Source: an uncultured Bermanella sp.
Lineage (GTDB): Bacteria > Pseudomonadota > Gammaproteobacteria > Pseudomonadales > Oceanobacteraceae
DNA length: 64,000 nt
Direction of reading: 5' to 3'
NCBI GenBank assembly: GCA_913058575.1
Contig: CAJXRF010000001.1
Coordinates: forward strand, 39,056-103,055
A program made the position numbers and the translations under genes. Shown here in pieces: positions 4,088 to 38,976 of the stretch (position 1 is the first letter of the stretch; every line of letters begins with the position of its first letter). The notes below the pieces were generated by a model. That model did not search any database. It was not told the origin of the DNA and saw only the letters and a program-made list of their open reading frames with translations.

Positions 4088-4139
4088 AAAGATGGTCTCC
4101 CCACCAGGACTCGAACCTGGAGCAGCCGCTTAGGAGGCG
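4088..4139. repeat. Left att core: 52-bp direct repeat, 3' part of tRNA-Arg(CCT)
   Basis: aaagatggtctccccaccaggactcgaacctggagcagccgcttaggaggcg is identical at 4088-4139 and 38896-38947. Confidence 0.97.
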
Positions 4140-4185: not shown

Positions 4186-4887
4186 TTAAGGTTCAAATGT
4201 GACACTATTTGTGACACTTTTGGGGTCTTTCGCCTCTTTTGGGTCTGCACTGTGCTTTGTTGCTTCATTTTTCTTGATAGCCATGGCTTGCGCACTTCTT
4301 TCTAAGTTACTGGGCACAATTGATATTAATCCCCTAGGCATTACCAGATCTTTTTCGCCTATCAACTTAACGGCCAAGTTGACTGAAAAGTAAGTGACAA
4401 AAATGAAAATAGGGATTTGAAAAGCTCTAACCAATGTTAAATTTATCTTATGCTTAATATCAGTATTTTTTTTGTAGGCATCCATCTCCATATCTTTTCT
4501 TATTTCATTATTACTTTCTAGTACAGATTTTTTAAATACATCCACACTGCCAATTGTAGTTTTATGCGATATGTAAACTTTAGATAATGATTGTAGACCA
4601 TCACTTACAATGTTTAGTTTTTTAGAAATTTTTTCGCAATCTTTTATAAATACACCAGGGTCGTGATTTACTTCTTGCTGTAGATTCAATATAAAAGTTT
4701 TTGTTTGATTGCATGTTTGTATTGATTCATGAATTAGTTTTAAATTATCTAAAATTTCATTATGTATTCTTACAGTGTCATCCTGATATTTAAGCTTGTC
4801 ATAAAGATTAACAAAACCCAGTTGTACTCTTCTAGTTAGTTGTACAAAGGGTGATGCGTTATAGTTATCCATTTTTATTTCCCTCAA
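4186..4887 (-). CDS. Hypothetical accessory protein (coiled coil plus C-terminal TM segment); likely start at MDNYN
   Basis: 233-aa AT-rich ORF; hydrophobic stretch QIPIFIFVTYFSVNLAVKLI; its 3' end runs through the arm repeats. Confidence 0.6.
   Translation of the reverse strand: MREIKMDNYNASPFVQLTRRVQLGFVNLYDKLKYQDDTVRIHNEILDNLKLIHESIQTCNQTKTFILNLQQEVNHDPGVFIKDCEKISKKLNIVSDGLQSLSKVYISHKTTIGSVDVFKKSVLESNNEIRKDMEMDAYKKNTDIKHKINLTLVRAFQIPIFIFVTYFSVNLAVKLIGEKDLVMPRGLISIVPSNLERSAQAMAIKKNEATKHSADPKEAKDPKSVTNSVTFEP
4198..4218 (+). promoter_or_regulatory. Two TGTGACACT direct repeats; candidate integrase arm-binding sites
   Basis: Copies at 4198 and 4210, about 60 bp inside the left att core; the same 9-mer occurs four times inside the right att. 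Confidence 0.75.
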
Positions 4888-4969: not shown

Positions 4970-6097
4970 TTAAACGTCAGTAGGCTCTAAAGATTTAGTT
5001 TCGGCTGAGTAAGATTTTTTATTTGCGTAAATACCACCGACTATTCTAGGCTCTATAAATATAACTTTTCTTTTTTCAGCCCCTGGTCCATAAGGCTGCA
5101 TTCTGAAATGACCTTTTCTCCAGTGAGCTTTTTTTGGGCTACTTTTATGGCTATGCGCAATTTCATTGACTGAAGAGTACACGACGTTATCTTCAGGTTT
5201 GATTATTACTCTGTTATAAGTTCTTCGAAGTTTCTTTTCATATTTTTTTAACTTACCTGGGCTTTTCAAGGATTTGATCTTTTTCTCAATTTCACTTCTT
5301 TCATTGAATGCTGTATCTCTATATTGCTTACTATTAATAAAAAGTAGAACTTTAGCCATGTGGTTGAGAGCTTTTGATAAGTATGGTAGATCATTTGCGA
5401 AATCAGAGTCTGAGCCGTATTGTTCCTCAATAAATTTTAGTTGACTATTTATGGTGGTGTTATCTTGATGAATCATAAGGCTTTGTACCCTAAGAGAGTC
5501 ATCACTGTTGGAACTTTTTCCCAAAGGTGAGCCGGTAAACATGAGGTCTAGGACACGGAGTTCTTTAGATTGGTCAACAATTGGGTGTAGACTGTAAGCA
5601 TTCATCTCTTCTGTATCTGGATGTATTACAGTTTCAGAAATATAAACACCTTCTAATATATGATCACCACTTTCTTCGTTATACATATGTAAAGAAGAAC
5701 ATCTTTCTTCTGTAAACTCTATGTAACAACTTTTAAATGGGGGCCTGAGATAGGATAGTGGTATATCGTCACCAATGTCGGTGGCTTCCAATAGTTTATC
5801 AATCTCGTTTGAGGTGGTAAGAATATTACCCTTCATAGACCTGTATTTATATGGGTGTAATAGTGATGATATTAATGTTCCTGCTTCATGGCGAGTCATT
5901 TCACTACTGGTATAGGTTTTTACAAAATCTTCATTATTTTCTTCTATCAGAGCGTACAAATAGTCAATCGTACACTTGGTTATATCAATATCTTCAAAAA
6001 TTGAATCAAAAAATTTATATAGATTCATTAAATATTTTTCTTTAACCTCTTCACATATGGATCTAATTGGGTGAGGTAATTTATATGTAATATCCAT
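4970..6097 (-). CDS. Hypothetical accessory protein with C-terminal HWRKGHFRxQxYGPG motif
   Basis: 375-aa ORF; the basic C-terminal motif is one I recognise from uncharacterised mobile-element proteins; no function assignable. Confidence 0.75.
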   Translation of the reverse strand: MDITYKLPHPIRSICEEVKEKYLMNLYKFFDSIFEDIDITKCTIDYLYALIEENNEDFVKTYTSSEMTRHEAGTLISSLLHPYKYRSMKGNILTTSNEIDKLLEATDIGDDIPLSYLRPPFKSCYIEFTEERCSSLHMYNEESGDHILEGVYISETVIHPDTEEMNAYSLHPIVDQSKELRVLDLMFTGSPLGKSSNSDDSLRVQSLMIHQDNTTINSQLKFIEEQYGSDSDFANDLPYLSKALNHMAKVLLFINSKQYRDTAFNERSEIEKKIKSLKSPGKLKKYEKKLRRTYNRVIIKPEDNVVYSSVNEIAHSHKSSPKKAHWRKGHFRMQPYGPGAEKRKVIFIEPRIVGGIYANKKSYSAETKSLEPTDV

Positions 6098-6148: not shown

Positions 6149-7333
6149 TCACCCTAGTAAATCCACAGCGCTTTTCTGGCTGGATTGTTTTGTATTAAAA
6201 TATTTCATTGTAGTGGCTAGGTCCGAGTGGTCGGCTAGGTGTTGAACTTGTACTGGTGGCACGCCTTCATTTAAAAGCCAGGTAATATAAGTGGCTCTAA
6301 TTCCCCAGTGAAAAGGCTTCACGCTTTTTGATAGTCCTAGTTCATTACAGGCTGCGCGCATGGGTTTTGATAAGTTTGCGCTGGTAGAATGCCAAGGTTT
6401 GCCGTTTCCCTTGTCTAAAAAATAACGTTCGCTTGCATCTCTGTTGGCCAAGTCTTCTTTTAGGAAATTCATTAGGGTTTTATTAATGGGTTTATTTGGC
6501 CACTTCATCCCCTTGGGCTTCCAGCCTAATTCTTCGTTCTCTTTTATGTGAACAAAGCCTTTCTCTAAATCTATGTTTTCAAGCTTTAATGCCCAAATGT
6601 GCCCAACGCGTACCAATGTATGACGGGCCAGCATGAATGCTCTGAATAAGTTTTTATTCTGGCGTGTAATGCGAGGGTCATTTTTTTCGTTGAATTTTTC
6701 TTCAAGGTACTTGGCCAAAGAATCCACTTCATCCTGGGTGAATGTTTCCATTTCCTTTTGCGGTACTTTAGACTTTTTAAGATGAAAGCGTTTTTCTAGA
6801 TATTCATTGTCATACGCCCAGTTTAAAAAGTTCTGCAATTGGCGCATGTGTTGGTTTTGTGTGGCTGGCCCAATGACTTCTTTGGTGCGCTTGTTTTTGT
6901 GTTTGGTTAGCGCGGTAAAAAAAGAAATGTTTTTGTCTCGGTCAAAGTCACTTAGGCGGTGATTTTTAACGGTGTCTAAATATAAATCAATGGTGAATTT
7001 ATAAGTTTTGTGAGTCTTGGGGCTTTGGGTTGATTTAATTTCTTCTAACCAAATATTAGAGGCTTCATTAAAGGTGGCGGTGCGGCGTTTACGTTTTACG
7101 CCATCCACGGTTTGGCGTGTTTTTAAAAGCCCTTGTCTTAGTTCTAGTTCCTTATCTGTATAGAGCTTATTTAGGTGTCTTAGCCTTTCATCTTCAGGGA
7201 TTAATTGTAAATCAGATTTTTTACACAGTACGCGACGAATACCACGGCGACCAGGTACATGCCCACGCTCGAAGTCATCAGGATAGACCCCCAATATAGA
7301 ATCACCACGATAAATATAATTTTTACGGGACAT
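6149..7333 (-). CDS. int: Tyrosine recombinase (phage integrase)
   Basis: Catalytic residues in order: R (LVRVGHI), H-x-x-x-R variant (HWGIRAT), H (LADHS), Y (TMKYF); N-terminal SAM-like core-binding region. Confidence 0.95.
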   Translation of the reverse strand: MSRKNYIYRGDSILGVYPDDFERGHVPGRRGIRRVLCKKSDLQLIPEDERLRHLNKLYTDKELELRQGLLKTRQTVDGVKRKRRTATFNEASNIWLEEIKSTQSPKTHKTYKFTIDLYLDTVKNHRLSDFDRDKNISFFTALTKHKNKRTKEVIGPATQNQHMRQLQNFLNWAYDNEYLEKRFHLKKSKVPQKEMETFTQDEVDSLAKYLEEKFNEKNDPRITRQNKNLFRAFMLARHTLVRVGHIWALKLENIDLEKGFVHIKENEELGWKPKGMKWPNKPINKTLMNFLKEDLANRDASERYFLDKGNGKPWHSTSANLSKPMRAACNELGLSKSVKPFHWGIRATYITWLLNEGVPPVQVQHLADHSDLATTMKYFNTKQSSQKSAVDLLG

Positions 7334-7364: not shown

Positions 7365-8492
7365 TCATTCATCTGGTGATCCTTCTTCCCTATACAATTT
7401 TTGTAGGTGCTTTAGCATCATTCTTTCTTTATTAGATAGAGATTTTTCTTCTTTATCCTCCAGTTCTTTCATATAAACAGTAATTACTGTTTCCTCATTC
7501 CCATTTGAAATATTTTTCCGTCTTTCTTGTTCTTTTACTGATTCCCAAATCAATGTTTTGAAATCTGTTGTTGATGTCAAATAAATGAGATTATTTGGAA
7601 TTGTGATTCTTATATGGCCTCTTTCACCAATTAATTTTATTCTGGTTGAGGTTCCAACACCCGTAAATAAAATAGTGGCATTTTTAATTAGGCATGTATT
7701 GGCGTTGCATATAGATTCGCTTGATAGTTTTTGTTCATAGTGGAAGTCTAATTCAGTCTTTAAGTGTTTTTTAGAGACAGTGATGTCTGAGTTTAACTGG
7801 CGAATACTCATAATCTCAAATGTTTTCTCTGTAATTCCAGAGCTTAACTGTCCCAATAAAAGAGGTATGAGGTAGATTAATATGAAAAAAAGTAATTTTA
7901 TAAAGTTCACATTTTTAGAATTTGAGTGACTGCCTTTCAAGTGGTTTAGCCATTTATCATTTACGAATGTAGCTGAGAATATATTTGTTAGTAGTAGTAG
8001 AGATGCAATAGCGGAGAAGTTTATAAGTATAGTAACTGGTGAATAGTCTTCTATTGCTATAAAAAGAAGAAATACGATATTGGATAGGATGCCAGTCTGG
8101 ATTATGTAGTGCTGAATTTTCAGTTTTGGAACGTGGTAACCATTACTTCCTGATGTAGTTATTTTGTTAGTGACCCAGTGAATCAACCAGTTAAAAAAGG
8201 CTAACCAAGTAATCGCTGCTGTGAAGAAACCAAATGAAACAAAACTATAAAATAATGTAAATATAATACAGACGGAAATAAAAAATAGTGTATCTGATAG
8301 TGTTAATCCTGAAGGGTAGAAGCCTATGGATATACAGTAAATCATAACCAAAAGTATCCCTACACTAGCAAATACGAGGTAAGGCAATTTGGGGTGTCTT
8401 TTAATAATTGAGCCGAGATACTGCTCAAAACTCTCTTCTGGCTGAGCGTTTGACGCCGCACCACCGTTTAGAATAATATTTTTGGGTTCCAT
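7365..8492 (-). CDS. Multi-pass membrane protein, unknown function (lysogenic-transcript accessory gene)
   Basis: About 6-7 hydrophobic segments in the first 220 aa, then a soluble C-terminal region; AT-rich; lies between cI and int. Confidence 0.75.
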   Translation of the reverse strand: MEPKNIILNGGAASNAQPEESFEQYLGSIIKRHPKLPYLVFASVGILLVMIYCISIGFYPSGLTLSDTLFFISVCIIFTLFYSFVSFGFFTAAITWLAFFNWLIHWVTNKITTSGSNGYHVPKLKIQHYIIQTGILSNIVFLLFIAIEDYSPVTILINFSAIASLLLLTNIFSATFVNDKWLNHLKGSHSNSKNVNFIKLLFFILIYLIPLLLGQLSSGITEKTFEIMSIRQLNSDITVSKKHLKTELDFHYEQKLSSESICNANTCLIKNATILFTGVGTSTRIKLIGERGHIRITIPNNLIYLTSTTDFKTLIWESVKEQERRKNISNGNEETVITVYMKELEDKEEKSLSNKERMMLKHLQKLYREEGSPDE

Positions 8493-8504
8493 GATTGTAA
8501 TCCC

Positions 8505-9023
8505 TTAACTAGCTTTAGCTTTATTTCTTGCGTTATTCTCACGCATTAACTTACGCCATTCCTTGACGGTCATTACCTCGCCTGTTTCAGTTCTGGTTAT
8601 AGAGTCGTTAATAATTCTGTCTATTCTAAATTCACGTGAGTCTTCGCGTTCTTCACACCAGCCTTTGATATTTCCAGTAATGCCTGTTGAAACTTGAACT
8701 GTGTAGAAACCTTGAATTCCTTCACCAGTTCGGTATTCAAAATTAATGGTGTCCATAGATTGACGTGAGTGGGCAGGGCGTTTTGGCTTATAAGTGCTGG
8801 TGCTGGTGCTGGTGCTGGTGCTGGTGCTGGTGCTGGTGCTGGTGCTGGTGCTAGGTGTGTTTTTATTTTTTTCTTTGTGTTGATCCCATAGCATTTGAAG
8901 GCCAACTAAAAAGAATGCTATTCCAATGCCTATAGCCCATCCAGTGCCGCCAAATATTCCAGCTATGAGAGCAAAGAAAAGTGATCCACCTAGTATAAAT
9001 TTGAATGTAAATTCATTATTCAT
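8505..9023 (-). CDS. Membrane-anchored protein with Ser-Thr linker and WYL-like C-terminal domain
   Basis: Two N-terminal TM helices, (ST)10 linker, then INFEY...IKGWCEEREDSREFRIDRI matching the WYL pattern (xYCxxRxxxRxFRxDRI). Confidence 0.7.
   Translation of the reverse strand: MNNEFTFKFILGGSLFFALIAGIFGGTGWAIGIGIAFFLVGLQMLWDQHKEKNKNTPSTSTSTSTSTSTSTSTSTSTYKPKRPAHSRQSMDTINFEYRTGEGIQGFYTVQVSTGITGNIKGWCEEREDSREFRIDRIINDSITRTETGEVMTVKEWRKLMRENNARNKAKAS
8794..8852. repeat. Hexamer tandem repeat (GTGCTG)x9.8, in frame, encoding Ser-Thr
   Basis: Nine perfect copies plus GTGCT, counted directly. Confidence 0.97.
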
Positions 9024-9080: not shown

Positions 9081-9713
9081 TTATGATTGGCCACCTTGCC
9101 AAACAACCTCACCAATAATTTTAAGCTCACTAAATTGTTCAGCTGTAAGGTTTTGAGTAACTTCATTATCCATAGTGATGGATACGGTGTTATCCATGTT
9201 TACTAAGGCATCAATGATTCTTTTTGTGCCATTGGTTTCTACTAAAATCAGTCCGCCACCTGATAAATTGCGTGTATCCAGTAAAACTGTATAGCCGCGC
9301 TCAAGTCCTTTTAAGTTGGCTTTGTAATCAATTTTCCAGATTCGGCATTCTTCAACTTTTACATCTAGTTCCTTCTCTAGAAAGTCAGGTTCAAACGACA
9401 TGTTGATCTTTTGGGATTCATCAAGTGGGGTAATTTCTTTAAAGGTGTTGGTGTATTCCCATAGCTCGTCATTAACCATCATTGGGCCCTGCCCTAGAGC
9501 TATCCACTTCAATTCAAACCCTGTAGCAATGGCAATTTCCGCTGCATTTTCCAGAGTCGTAGAGGCCATCTGTCTTGATAGTCTGCTTACTTGGGCGGGG
9601 CCAATGCTAGTGTGTTTTGCCACATATGAAGGGCCTTTGGTCTTTATTGCATAGGCTAGGCGGCCCTTCAAAGTTTCTAAATCTAAGCCATCCATGTTGC
9701 TTGATCTTCCCAT
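9081..9713 (-). CDS. cI: CI-like immunity repressor (N-terminal HTH, S24-like C-terminal domain)
   Basis: HTH ending in KWIALGQGPM, C-terminal KIIGEVVW; divergent from the AlpA/Cox-like gene. Confidence 0.85.
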   Translation of the reverse strand: MGRSSNMDGLDLETLKGRLAYAIKTKGPSYVAKHTSIGPAQVSRLSRQMASTTLENAAEIAIATGFELKWIALGQGPMMVNDELWEYTNTFKEITPLDESQKINMSFEPDFLEKELDVKVEECRIWKIDYKANLKGLERGYTVLLDTRNLSGGGLILVETNGTKRIIDALVNMDNTVSITMDNEVTQNLTAEQFSELKIIGEVVWQGGQS

Positions 9714-9786: not shown

Positions 9787-9879
9787 GCTTTAACCAGTCA
9801 TAGAGGGTCACAGACAGGTTTAAGCAAGAGTATGCCGCTCTATACGACGTATAACAACCACTTAAGGGTAGTAAGCAAT

Positions 9880-10197
9880 ATGGAATCAGTAACCTCTCAC
9901 ACAGCCGAATCGATCAATAACGATGTAATGTGCCTCGTAAACGTCGCACTTAAGAGACGTTCTTTGTATCTATCCCTTAAAGGGGTCTGTGAAAAGCTTA
10001 GTTTTTCTGAGTCGGCCATCAAAAAATGGGTGAAAAACAAGACCTTTCCCCAGCCTGTAATTATCTACAAGCATCCACGCTGGGTGGAGTCCGAAGTAGA
10101 TACCTGGATAGAGCAGCAAAATCCAGAGCGATTGGGGGTAAGGCATCAAGCAACCCAGTTAGAAAAAGACGGTGCCGATATTCTGGCCCAGCTTTAA
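9880..10197 (+). CDS. AlpA/Cox/Apl-like DNA-binding protein (excisionase/regulator)
   Basis: LSLKGVCEKLSFSESAIKKWVKNKTFPQPV...RWVESEVDTWI is the AlpA winged-helix pattern; track start is 9832, start uncertain. Confidence 0.85.
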   Translation: MESVTSHTAESINNDVMCLVNVALKRRSLYLSLKGVCEKLSFSESAIKKWVKNKTFPQPVIIYKHPRWVESEVDTWIEQQNPERLGVRHQATQLEKDGADILAQL

Positions 10198-38895: not shown

Positions 38896-38947
38896 AAAGA
38901 TGGTCTCCCCACCAGGACTCGAACCTGGAGCAGCCGCTTAGGAGGCG
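38896..38947. repeat. Right att core (52 bp), overlapping the intact tRNA
   Basis: Identical to 4088-4139. Confidence 0.97.
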
Positions 38948-38976
38948 GCAGTTTTATCCGGTTAAACTATGGAGAG
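38901..38976 (-). tRNA. tRNA-Arg, anticodon CCT
   Basis: CTCTCCA TA GTTT AACCGGATA AAAC T GCCGC CTCCTAA GCGGC TGCT CCAGG TTCGAGT CCTGG TGGGGAG A CCA folds as a 76-nt cloverleaf. Confidence 0.97.

Follow-up and report, generated by a model that had tools for sequence, protein, structure and literature searches.

The cI operon of phage lambda encodes a repressor, a nucleic-acid-related sensor and a polytopic membrane protein, the last two being RexA and RexB, all of which are expressed in the lysogen. Superinfection-exclusion genes situated between repressor and integrase are represented by lactococcal Sie2009, Ltp of S. thermophilus and Glo of Vibrio K139, whose products act from the external side of the membrane or from the periplasm. 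A further group of small proteins, exemplified by Cam1, in which a transmembrane (TM) segment is joined to a CARF domain, and Cap15, with two TM helices and a beta-barrel, are membrane-anchored effectors that sense a ligand. The present study concerns the interval between the repressor gene cI and the integrase gene int of a P2-like prophage, contained in a 64,000-nucleotide stretch of DNA (the window, to which all our coordinates refer unless a locus is named) from an uncultured Bermanella sp. (contig CAJXRF010000001.1, positions 39,056 to 103,055). This interval holds two genes on the minus strand, which we call A (8505 to 9023, 172 amino acids), encoding a predicted inner-membrane-tethered WYL protein, and B (7365 to 8492, 375 amino acids), encoding a polytopic membrane protein.

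The interval itself has a precedent, and a first-pass annotation of this DNA had pointed out that variable loci of P2-like phages carry defense genes. Rousset et al. (2022) have described the cI-int interval of K139-like, P2-related Vibrionaceae prophages as a defense hotspot that contains PARIS, restriction-modification, Septu and many unknown systems, of which some are membrane proteins (PMC9122126). The slot studied here is the same one, also in a P2-related prophage, and its content varies among relatives, being A in one related locus (L009), a B homolog (B′) in another (L118), and A plus B in the window. Three differences separate our locus from the published hotspot. Table S6 of that study includes neither A nor B (PMC9122126), cultured phages are only distant relatives of the prophage of the window, and gene A behaves as a resident of its module and not as swappable cargo. 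The only model that PADLOC recognized in the cI-int slot of the window was a WYL accessory model, matched by A, with nothing for B.

The first-pass annotation had proposed that A and B form a two-gene system in which a membrane-tethered sensor is coupled to a membrane effector. The two genes do lie on the cI-int strand and only 12 bp apart, as it stated, but the coupling it proposed is contradicted by the distribution of the genes, which occur together only in this prophage lineage. A hidden Markov model (HMM) of the B family, run on approximately 100 A-family loci, matched only L010 and L011, both of them copies of this prophage (100% identity), and an A-family HMM found no match in 15 B-family loci. 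The co-occurrence in other genomes that the annotation had put forward as a check thus amounts to none outside the identical prophage. The nearest relatives have one gene or the other in the slot. In L009, whose cI and int products are 52% and 60% identical to those of the window, the order is cI-A-int, with A 58% identical, a 12-bp gap between A and int, and no B. In L118, the closest relative of the prophage (cI 72%, int 80% and the replication protein GPA 65% identical), the order is cI-B′-int, with B′ 32% identical to B, and A is absent.

The two genes also differ in composition and in evolutionary tempo. The GC content of gene A (41.2%) matches that of cI (41.5%), int (40.8%) and the prophage as a whole (41.0%), so that the earlier description of both genes as AT-rich holds for gene B (33.2%) and not for A. 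The low GC content of gene B resembles that of two other cargo genes located beyond int. The divergence of gene A tracks that of the flanking cI and int, whereas gene B diverges far faster than its flanks. Because of these GC and divergence patterns, we take gene A to be resident in the repressor module and gene B to be exchangeable cargo. A and B are inherited independently and are not supported as a pair. On balance we favor, with moderate confidence, the reading that the cI-int interval holds two unrelated genes, each most likely acting alone and probably serving to protect the lysogen; co-transcription, topology, ligand and role are parts of this reading that we infer.

Gene A is a true WYL protein that lacks a helix-turn-helix (HTH) domain. 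It had been described as two TM helices, an (ST)10 repeat and a WYL-like domain with no HTH, and each of these parts was recovered. Residues 1-54 form two hydrophobic, predicted TM helices, which in the AlphaFold2 model span residues 4-23 and 29-54 and are followed by a disordered leash (55-90), a barrel (92-152) and a C-terminal helix (153-171). The model was made from the family alignment without one row that came from a GenBank phage record. Its five strands (92-98, 104-114, 118-123, 128-133 and 141-144) make up an Sm/SH3-like barrel, modeled with a predicted local distance difference test (pLDDT) score of about 95. When the model was compared with the PDB by Foldseek, the first 16 matches were BrxR, PafBC and CapW, with DriD lower down, and many of the WYL structures matched at about 2 Å root-mean-square deviation over about 62 columns. 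The PADLOC WYL model matches gene A at E=1.3e-5, and the Pfam WYL family PF13280 is matched by 39 of the 40 aligned members of the A family at E<=0.01, the best of them at 3.4e-8. F95, Y97, G121, R130, F132, R133, D135, R136 and I137 are invariant across the family alignment; the WYL signature, consisting of the GxC/WYL position and RxFRxDRI, is present, with G121, C123 and R126 invariant or nearly so. Profiles, motif, modeled barrel and Foldseek matches therefore agree that the WYL domain is genuine. No HTH family in Pfam, PHROGs, PADLOC or NCBIfam was matched by gene A, nor was the WCX family PF25583, and the barrel is followed solely by one 19-residue helix.

These features set gene A apart from the WYL proteins of known structure. 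BrxR, CapW, PafBC and DriD have in common with it the WYL barrel and the RxFRxDRI motif, and both kinds of protein occur with phage-defense loci. The solved proteins, however, possess a winged HTH and a WCX domain, in the place of which gene A has a membrane anchor and a disordered leash. Since it lacks both the winged HTH and WCX, gene A cannot be a DNA-binding transcription factor. The solved WYL regulators are described as sensing single-stranded DNA (ssDNA) that arises from DNA damage (PMC11662680). Makarova et al. reported WYL domains fused to BRCT, to nucleases and to helicases, and a search for the relevant terms in that paper found no membrane-anchored form (PMC4012209). We found no published description of membrane-anchored WYL proteins in the literature.

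The family to which gene A belongs is sizeable. Its close relatives are 67%, 58% and 62% identical to gene A, and 61 IMG/VR contigs, mostly of 30-36 kb, contain a relative. Three sets of sequences were used: the 40-sequence alignment already mentioned, 48 distinct proteins for synteny, and the approximately 100 loci for co-occurrence. At least one TM helix is present in 45 of the 48 distinct proteins. An open reading frame (ORF) of repressor size lies directly upstream on the same strand in 42 of the 48, and one of integrase size lies directly downstream in 22. These neighbor identities come from ORF sizes together with a Pfam scan of a small sample, in which the upstream genes were repressors (186-type CI or HTH_3) in five of five cases and the downstream genes integrases in three of five. 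No ORF with four or more TM helices was found within two genes of the A-family gene in any of the 48. Most A-family genes therefore stand singly, directly behind a P2-family prophage repressor. The same order of cI, A-family gene and int is seen in Yersinia phage vB_YenM_201.16 (Peduoviridae), where the A-family gene is annotated as hypothetical. Phage 186 was considered as a carrier and rejected, the Yersinia phage being the only cultured phage with the full TM-WYL architecture.

The membrane portion of the family is variable, with one, two or three TM helices whose sequences are poorly conserved. The 15 residues past the last TM helix have a mean net charge of +2.4, from which we predict that the WYL head faces the cytoplasm. 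The leash is variable as well. In gene A, Tandem Repeats Finder identified 10.5 tandem copies of a hexanucleotide, AGCACC as read on the coding strand, at 8794 to 8857 (minus strand), which encode the (ST)10 of the leash. The copy of this prophage in another assembly (L010) has one additional ST unit and is otherwise 100% identical, and the linkers of gene A homologs are unrelated to (ST)10. Since the copy number varies and the homologous linkers are unrelated, we regard (ST)10 as a slippage-prone spacer without a functional motif.

Two variants of the family depart from the usual setting or architecture. The closest gene A homolog outside a prophage, P0005, is 67% identical and was found on more than 20 metagenome contigs. 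In the loci that represent it (L003-L008; the gene is at L003:4382-4903) it stands alone, with a 282-amino-acid gene and a UvrD-like gene of 744 amino acids downstream. Beyond the UvrD-like gene lies a trio consisting of a Cap4-nuclease gene, a gene for a 187-amino-acid protein and an AAA_23 gene, which resembles a Lamassu-type system. The other variant (L096:6062-6793) has a TM anchor, a WYL domain and, at its C-terminus, a BRCT domain (Pfam BRCT, E=5.7e-10), and this relative is probably the reason why gene A weakly matches a "DNA ligase" PHROG (phrog_2561). The BRCT domain hints that recognition of DNA ends or nicks may occur in the family.

Gene B has a different character. Its product has five or six hydrophobic helices and, after them, a soluble part of about 150 amino acids. 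In the AlphaFold2 model (pLDDT 68), residues 35-213 hold about five membrane helices (35-56, 65-112, 128-148, 152-177 and 192-213), residues 232-299 a small beta domain and residues 306-375 a charged helical tail. The first-pass annotation was right in calling it polytopic with a soluble tail, and its count of six to seven TM helices appears too high; five crossings are likelier because residues 65-112 are modeled as one continuous helix. A word-indexed search had returned only gene B itself, and the resulting notion that gene B is an orphan was rejected when phmmer, run over 1.84 billion representative sequences, found 120 relatives, 32 of them at E<=1e-10. These relatives are distant and mostly about 280-310 amino acids long, aligning to gene B residues ~40-305, and the last approximately 70 residues of gene B are a charged tail specific to its lineage. 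A profile built from the B alignment finds at least four proteins in the word-indexed database. Members of the family have in common the motif YC..I..YP.GLT..D.LFF, located where TM1 and TM2 are predicted to reach the periplasm, and an ILFTGIG beta domain at the C-terminus.

We were unable to match gene B or its relatives to any family in Pfam, PHROGs, NCBIfam or PADLOC, and the PDB and BFVD yielded no fold match for gene B at E<0.001. No B-family relative was found in the IMG/VR scan, and there were no further matches in 400 genomes of the same class. Among 150 relative genomes three contain the family, all of them from one other genus and with no shared context. The B family is thus a rare, undescribed and unannotated membrane family. 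Its neighbors are varied, including an IS3 transposase, a GGDEF protein, aconitase, a cytochrome, HEPN/Toprim_N, an nSTAND NTPase, a type II methylase with a GIY-YIG enzyme, and PD-Lambda-5_A. The loci L119:7189-8904 and L125:7641-8597 cover two such settings: in one contig a PD-Lambda-5_A homolog (E=2.7e-36) adjoins the B-family gene, and in another a canonical HTH-WYL-WCX regulator comes two genes downstream of it.

Three members of the B family (P0042, P0070 and P0093) carry a C-terminal extension of about 150 amino acids that resembles OmpA, as judged from weak Pfam OmpA matches. These extensions suggest that the C-terminus of B-family proteins may face the periplasm, perhaps contacting peptidoglycan. 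The loop charges and these three relatives weakly favor a topology of gene B in which the N-terminus is inside, the C-terminus outside (N-in, C-out) and the beta domain in the periplasm.

How each gene might protect the lysogen can be outlined from these properties. In the lysogen, A and B probably share a transcript with cI. In the A family, the one to three membrane helices and the variable leash would keep the WYL barrel close to the inner membrane on its cytoplasmic side, where, by analogy with the solved WYL proteins, it most likely binds single-stranded nucleic acid. Candidate ligands are ends or intermediates, in single-stranded form, of DNA on its way across the membrane, and by binding them the barrel would exclude phages and other mobile DNA that enter the cell, or interfere with them. 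This mechanism is proposed because of the fold, the position of the gene and the existence of BRCT-carrying variants. Gene B would be recently acquired AT-rich cargo encoding an inner-membrane protein with approximately five TM helices and a beta domain that is probably periplasmic. It most likely functions as a stand-alone exclusion or defense protein, acting from the inner membrane or the periplasm, and we read it in this way because it occupies a hotspot slot and has relatives beside defense genes. The position of both genes in the lysogeny module is that of Sie2009, Ltp and Glo, which are likewise small, envelope-associated proteins made by the lysogen. There is no homology between those proteins and A or B, however, and the conserved domain of gene A is predicted to be cytoplasmic instead.

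Several points weigh against this interpretation. The defense role of both A and B is drawn from genomic context. The near-fixed position of gene A behind the repressor, and a divergence like that of the module, would be consistent, too, with a part in the control of lysogeny by the phage itself. The charge bias on which the topology of gene B is based is small, and its Cys pair is conserved solely in the close subfamily. Gene A itself scores 15.4 bits against PF13280 (E=0.019), below the gathering cut-off of 21.8 bits, a weakness that can be traced to the window clade having replaced two nearly invariant residues, R107, an Arg in more than 90% of the family, by Tyr, and T131, which lies inside the RTFRxDRI motif, by Glu. 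The WYL assignment is settled by the family-wide profile matches, beyond this sub-threshold score, but the two replacements may mean that the ligand binding or specificity of gene A differs. Finally, an interaction between A and B in this particular phage is compatible with their 12-bp spacing and shared operon, and B might be a newly recruited partner of A here.

The alternatives have to be considered for each gene separately. For gene B, a function outside defense is unlikely but deserves attention, in that it could be a membrane protein for lysogenic conversion or envelope modification, or some other fitness cargo. Temperate phages often put polytopic genes for envelope modification beside int, the conserved motif of the B family would be placed at the periplasmic end of TM1 and TM2, and some homologs reside among housekeeping genes such as those for aconitase and the cytochrome. 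Arguing in the other direction, gene B has no similarity to the acyltransferase, glycosyltransferase, Wzy or Gtr families, and Gly, Pro, Tyr and Phe account for most of its invariant residues, a pattern that points to a structural more than a catalytic role. Many homologs, moreover, adjoin defense or mobile genes.

For gene A, one alternative is that it is a sensor and effector in one, in which a ligand bound by the WYL domain would drive oligomerization of the TM helices, collapse of the membrane potential and abortive infection in the manner of Cam1 or Cap15. The parallel in architecture is clear, since gene A has the same plan as these proteins, with N-terminal TM helices, a linker and a small C-terminal ligand-binding barrel in one small protein that has no further domain. 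In addition, the gene stands alone at most loci, and the TM hairpin of the window clade is glycine-rich (GxxxG-like). The sensing fold of gene A is nevertheless WYL, and no cyclic-nucleotide synthase or other generator of a signal is linked to it, its neighbors being repressors and integrases. Its TM segments are not conserved and vary freely in number (one to three) and in sequence, which resembles a simple anchor. A pore-former triggered by ssDNA and expressed constitutively with the repressor could also endanger the lysogen. For these reasons we consider a self-contained effector improbable.

A still lower probability attaches to the idea that gene A serves the lysogeny switch of the prophage, as a membrane-tethered sensor of ssDNA or damage that modulates the repressor, induction or integration. 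The idea draws on the synteny, gene A coming immediately after the repressor at 42 of the 48 distinct loci and often before int, on its co-divergence with cI and int in L009 (58% versus 52% and 60%), and on a GC content equal to that of the module. It would also accord with the reported sensing of damage-derived ssDNA by solved WYL regulators (PMC11662680). In spite of this, gene A has neither an HTH nor any domain able to contact the repressor, and a membrane tether is hard to rationalize for a regulator of transcription. The closest relative of the prophage, L118, does without A, and the close homolog P0005 is found outside a prophage and beside defense genes. Least probable of all, and in our judgment very unlikely, is a Rex-like pair in which A, as a membrane sensor of nucleic acid, opens B as its effector to cause depolarization, abortive infection or a block of injection: the 12-bp spacing on one strand, the apparent operon with cI, a ligand-binding protein A without an output domain next to a polytopic B, and a layout that is the same as that of lambda cI-rexA-rexB would all suit it, but no sequence similarity to RexA or RexB was detected (Pfam, PHROGs, PADLOC), A is itself membrane-anchored, A and B do not form a conserved pair, being united solely in this prophage lineage while other A loci lack B or any neighbor with at least four TM helices, B loci lack A and close relatives carry only one of the two in the same slot, the genes differ in GC content and tempo, the predicted cytoplasmic WYL head and the probably periplasmic soluble domain of B would be on opposite sides of the membrane, and TM helices that vary in sequence and number, as those of A do, are unlike a specific partner interface.

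The preferred reading of two genes acting separately makes the TM-WYL family, which is unstudied, the main object of interest. Solved WYL domains are ssDNA-sensing switches on transcription factors, and a large WYL family without an output domain, tied to the membrane beside a P2-family repressor, would suggest that the fold has been put to another use, which could be an enzyme-free mechanism of exclusion. In its broadest form, which we put forward as a possibility more doubtful than probable, the proposal would be that membrane-tethered, HTH-less WYL proteins are widespread and unrecognized immunity factors, each a single polypeptide made together with a P2-family repressor and capturing single-stranded nucleic acid on the inner side of the membrane. 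Candidate targets of the leash-held WYL head would then be the cohesive ends of injected phage DNA, the ssDNA of filamentous phages and conjugative ssDNA. The window also illustrates the cI-int interval as a cargo site, in which a resident A is found beside a foreign B that turns over rapidly, with three related phages showing A, B′ and A plus B. For the discovery of defense systems, tight spacing in one genome is insufficient to call a two-gene system, and here it is co-occurrence across genomes that refutes the pairing.

The prophage that carries both genes is about 34.8 kb long, and its ends are marked by an exact direct repeat, 52 bp in length, that corresponds to the 3′ portion of a tRNA-Arg(CCT) gene. 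The left attachment-site (att) copy is at 4088 to 4139 and the right copy at 38896 to 38947, within the tRNA-Arg(CCT) gene itself (38901-38976). Its assignment as P2-like is defined by GPA, cI, int and att. No close cultured relative was found, GPA being less than 40% identical to that of every phage record. The repressor gene cI (9081 to 9713, minus strand, 210 amino acids) is the first of the lysogenic operon and is identified by PHROG phrog_4, transcriptional repressor (E=1.1e-7), and by Pfam Phage_CI_repr (E=3.6e-4), where its 21.3 bits are slightly below the 22-bit cut-off. Divergent from it, on the plus strand, is an AlpA/Cox-like gene (9832-10197), and the GPA replication gene is on the plus strand as well. 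The tyrosine integrase gene int (6149 to 7333, minus strand, 394 amino acids; Pfam Phage_integrase E=4.9e-20, phrog_1 E=4.3e-32) is the last of the string cI-A-B-int, in which all genes are on the minus strand with gaps of 57, 12 and 31 bp. Each of the four has a plausible ribosome-binding site, and no terminator-like site was found on the minus strand from cI to int. The string is most simply read as a single lysogenic operon that is probably co-transcribed.

The int gene is at the end of the prophage distant from the intact tRNA gene, and two AT-rich cargo genes, both on the minus strand, lie between it and the att repeat. The one directly inside the left repeat (4186-4887, 233 amino acids, 31.6% GC) has no family match in the libraries scanned. 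The other, closer to int (4970-6097, 375 amino acids, 34.0% GC), encodes a putative AcrVA2-like protein, for which a precomputed PF26125 AcrVA2-like match is recorded under an identical protein; our own Pfam scan gave no match. The same product matches phrog_6160, of unknown function, at E=6e-10 and the PADLOC mad2 model at only E=0.0013, and the gene may be anti-CRISPR-like cargo. At the corresponding position after int, L118 has an unknown gene of 454 amino acids (within L118:5292-8142). Because the slots on the two sides of int are filled differently in L118, both ends of int look like cargo sites.

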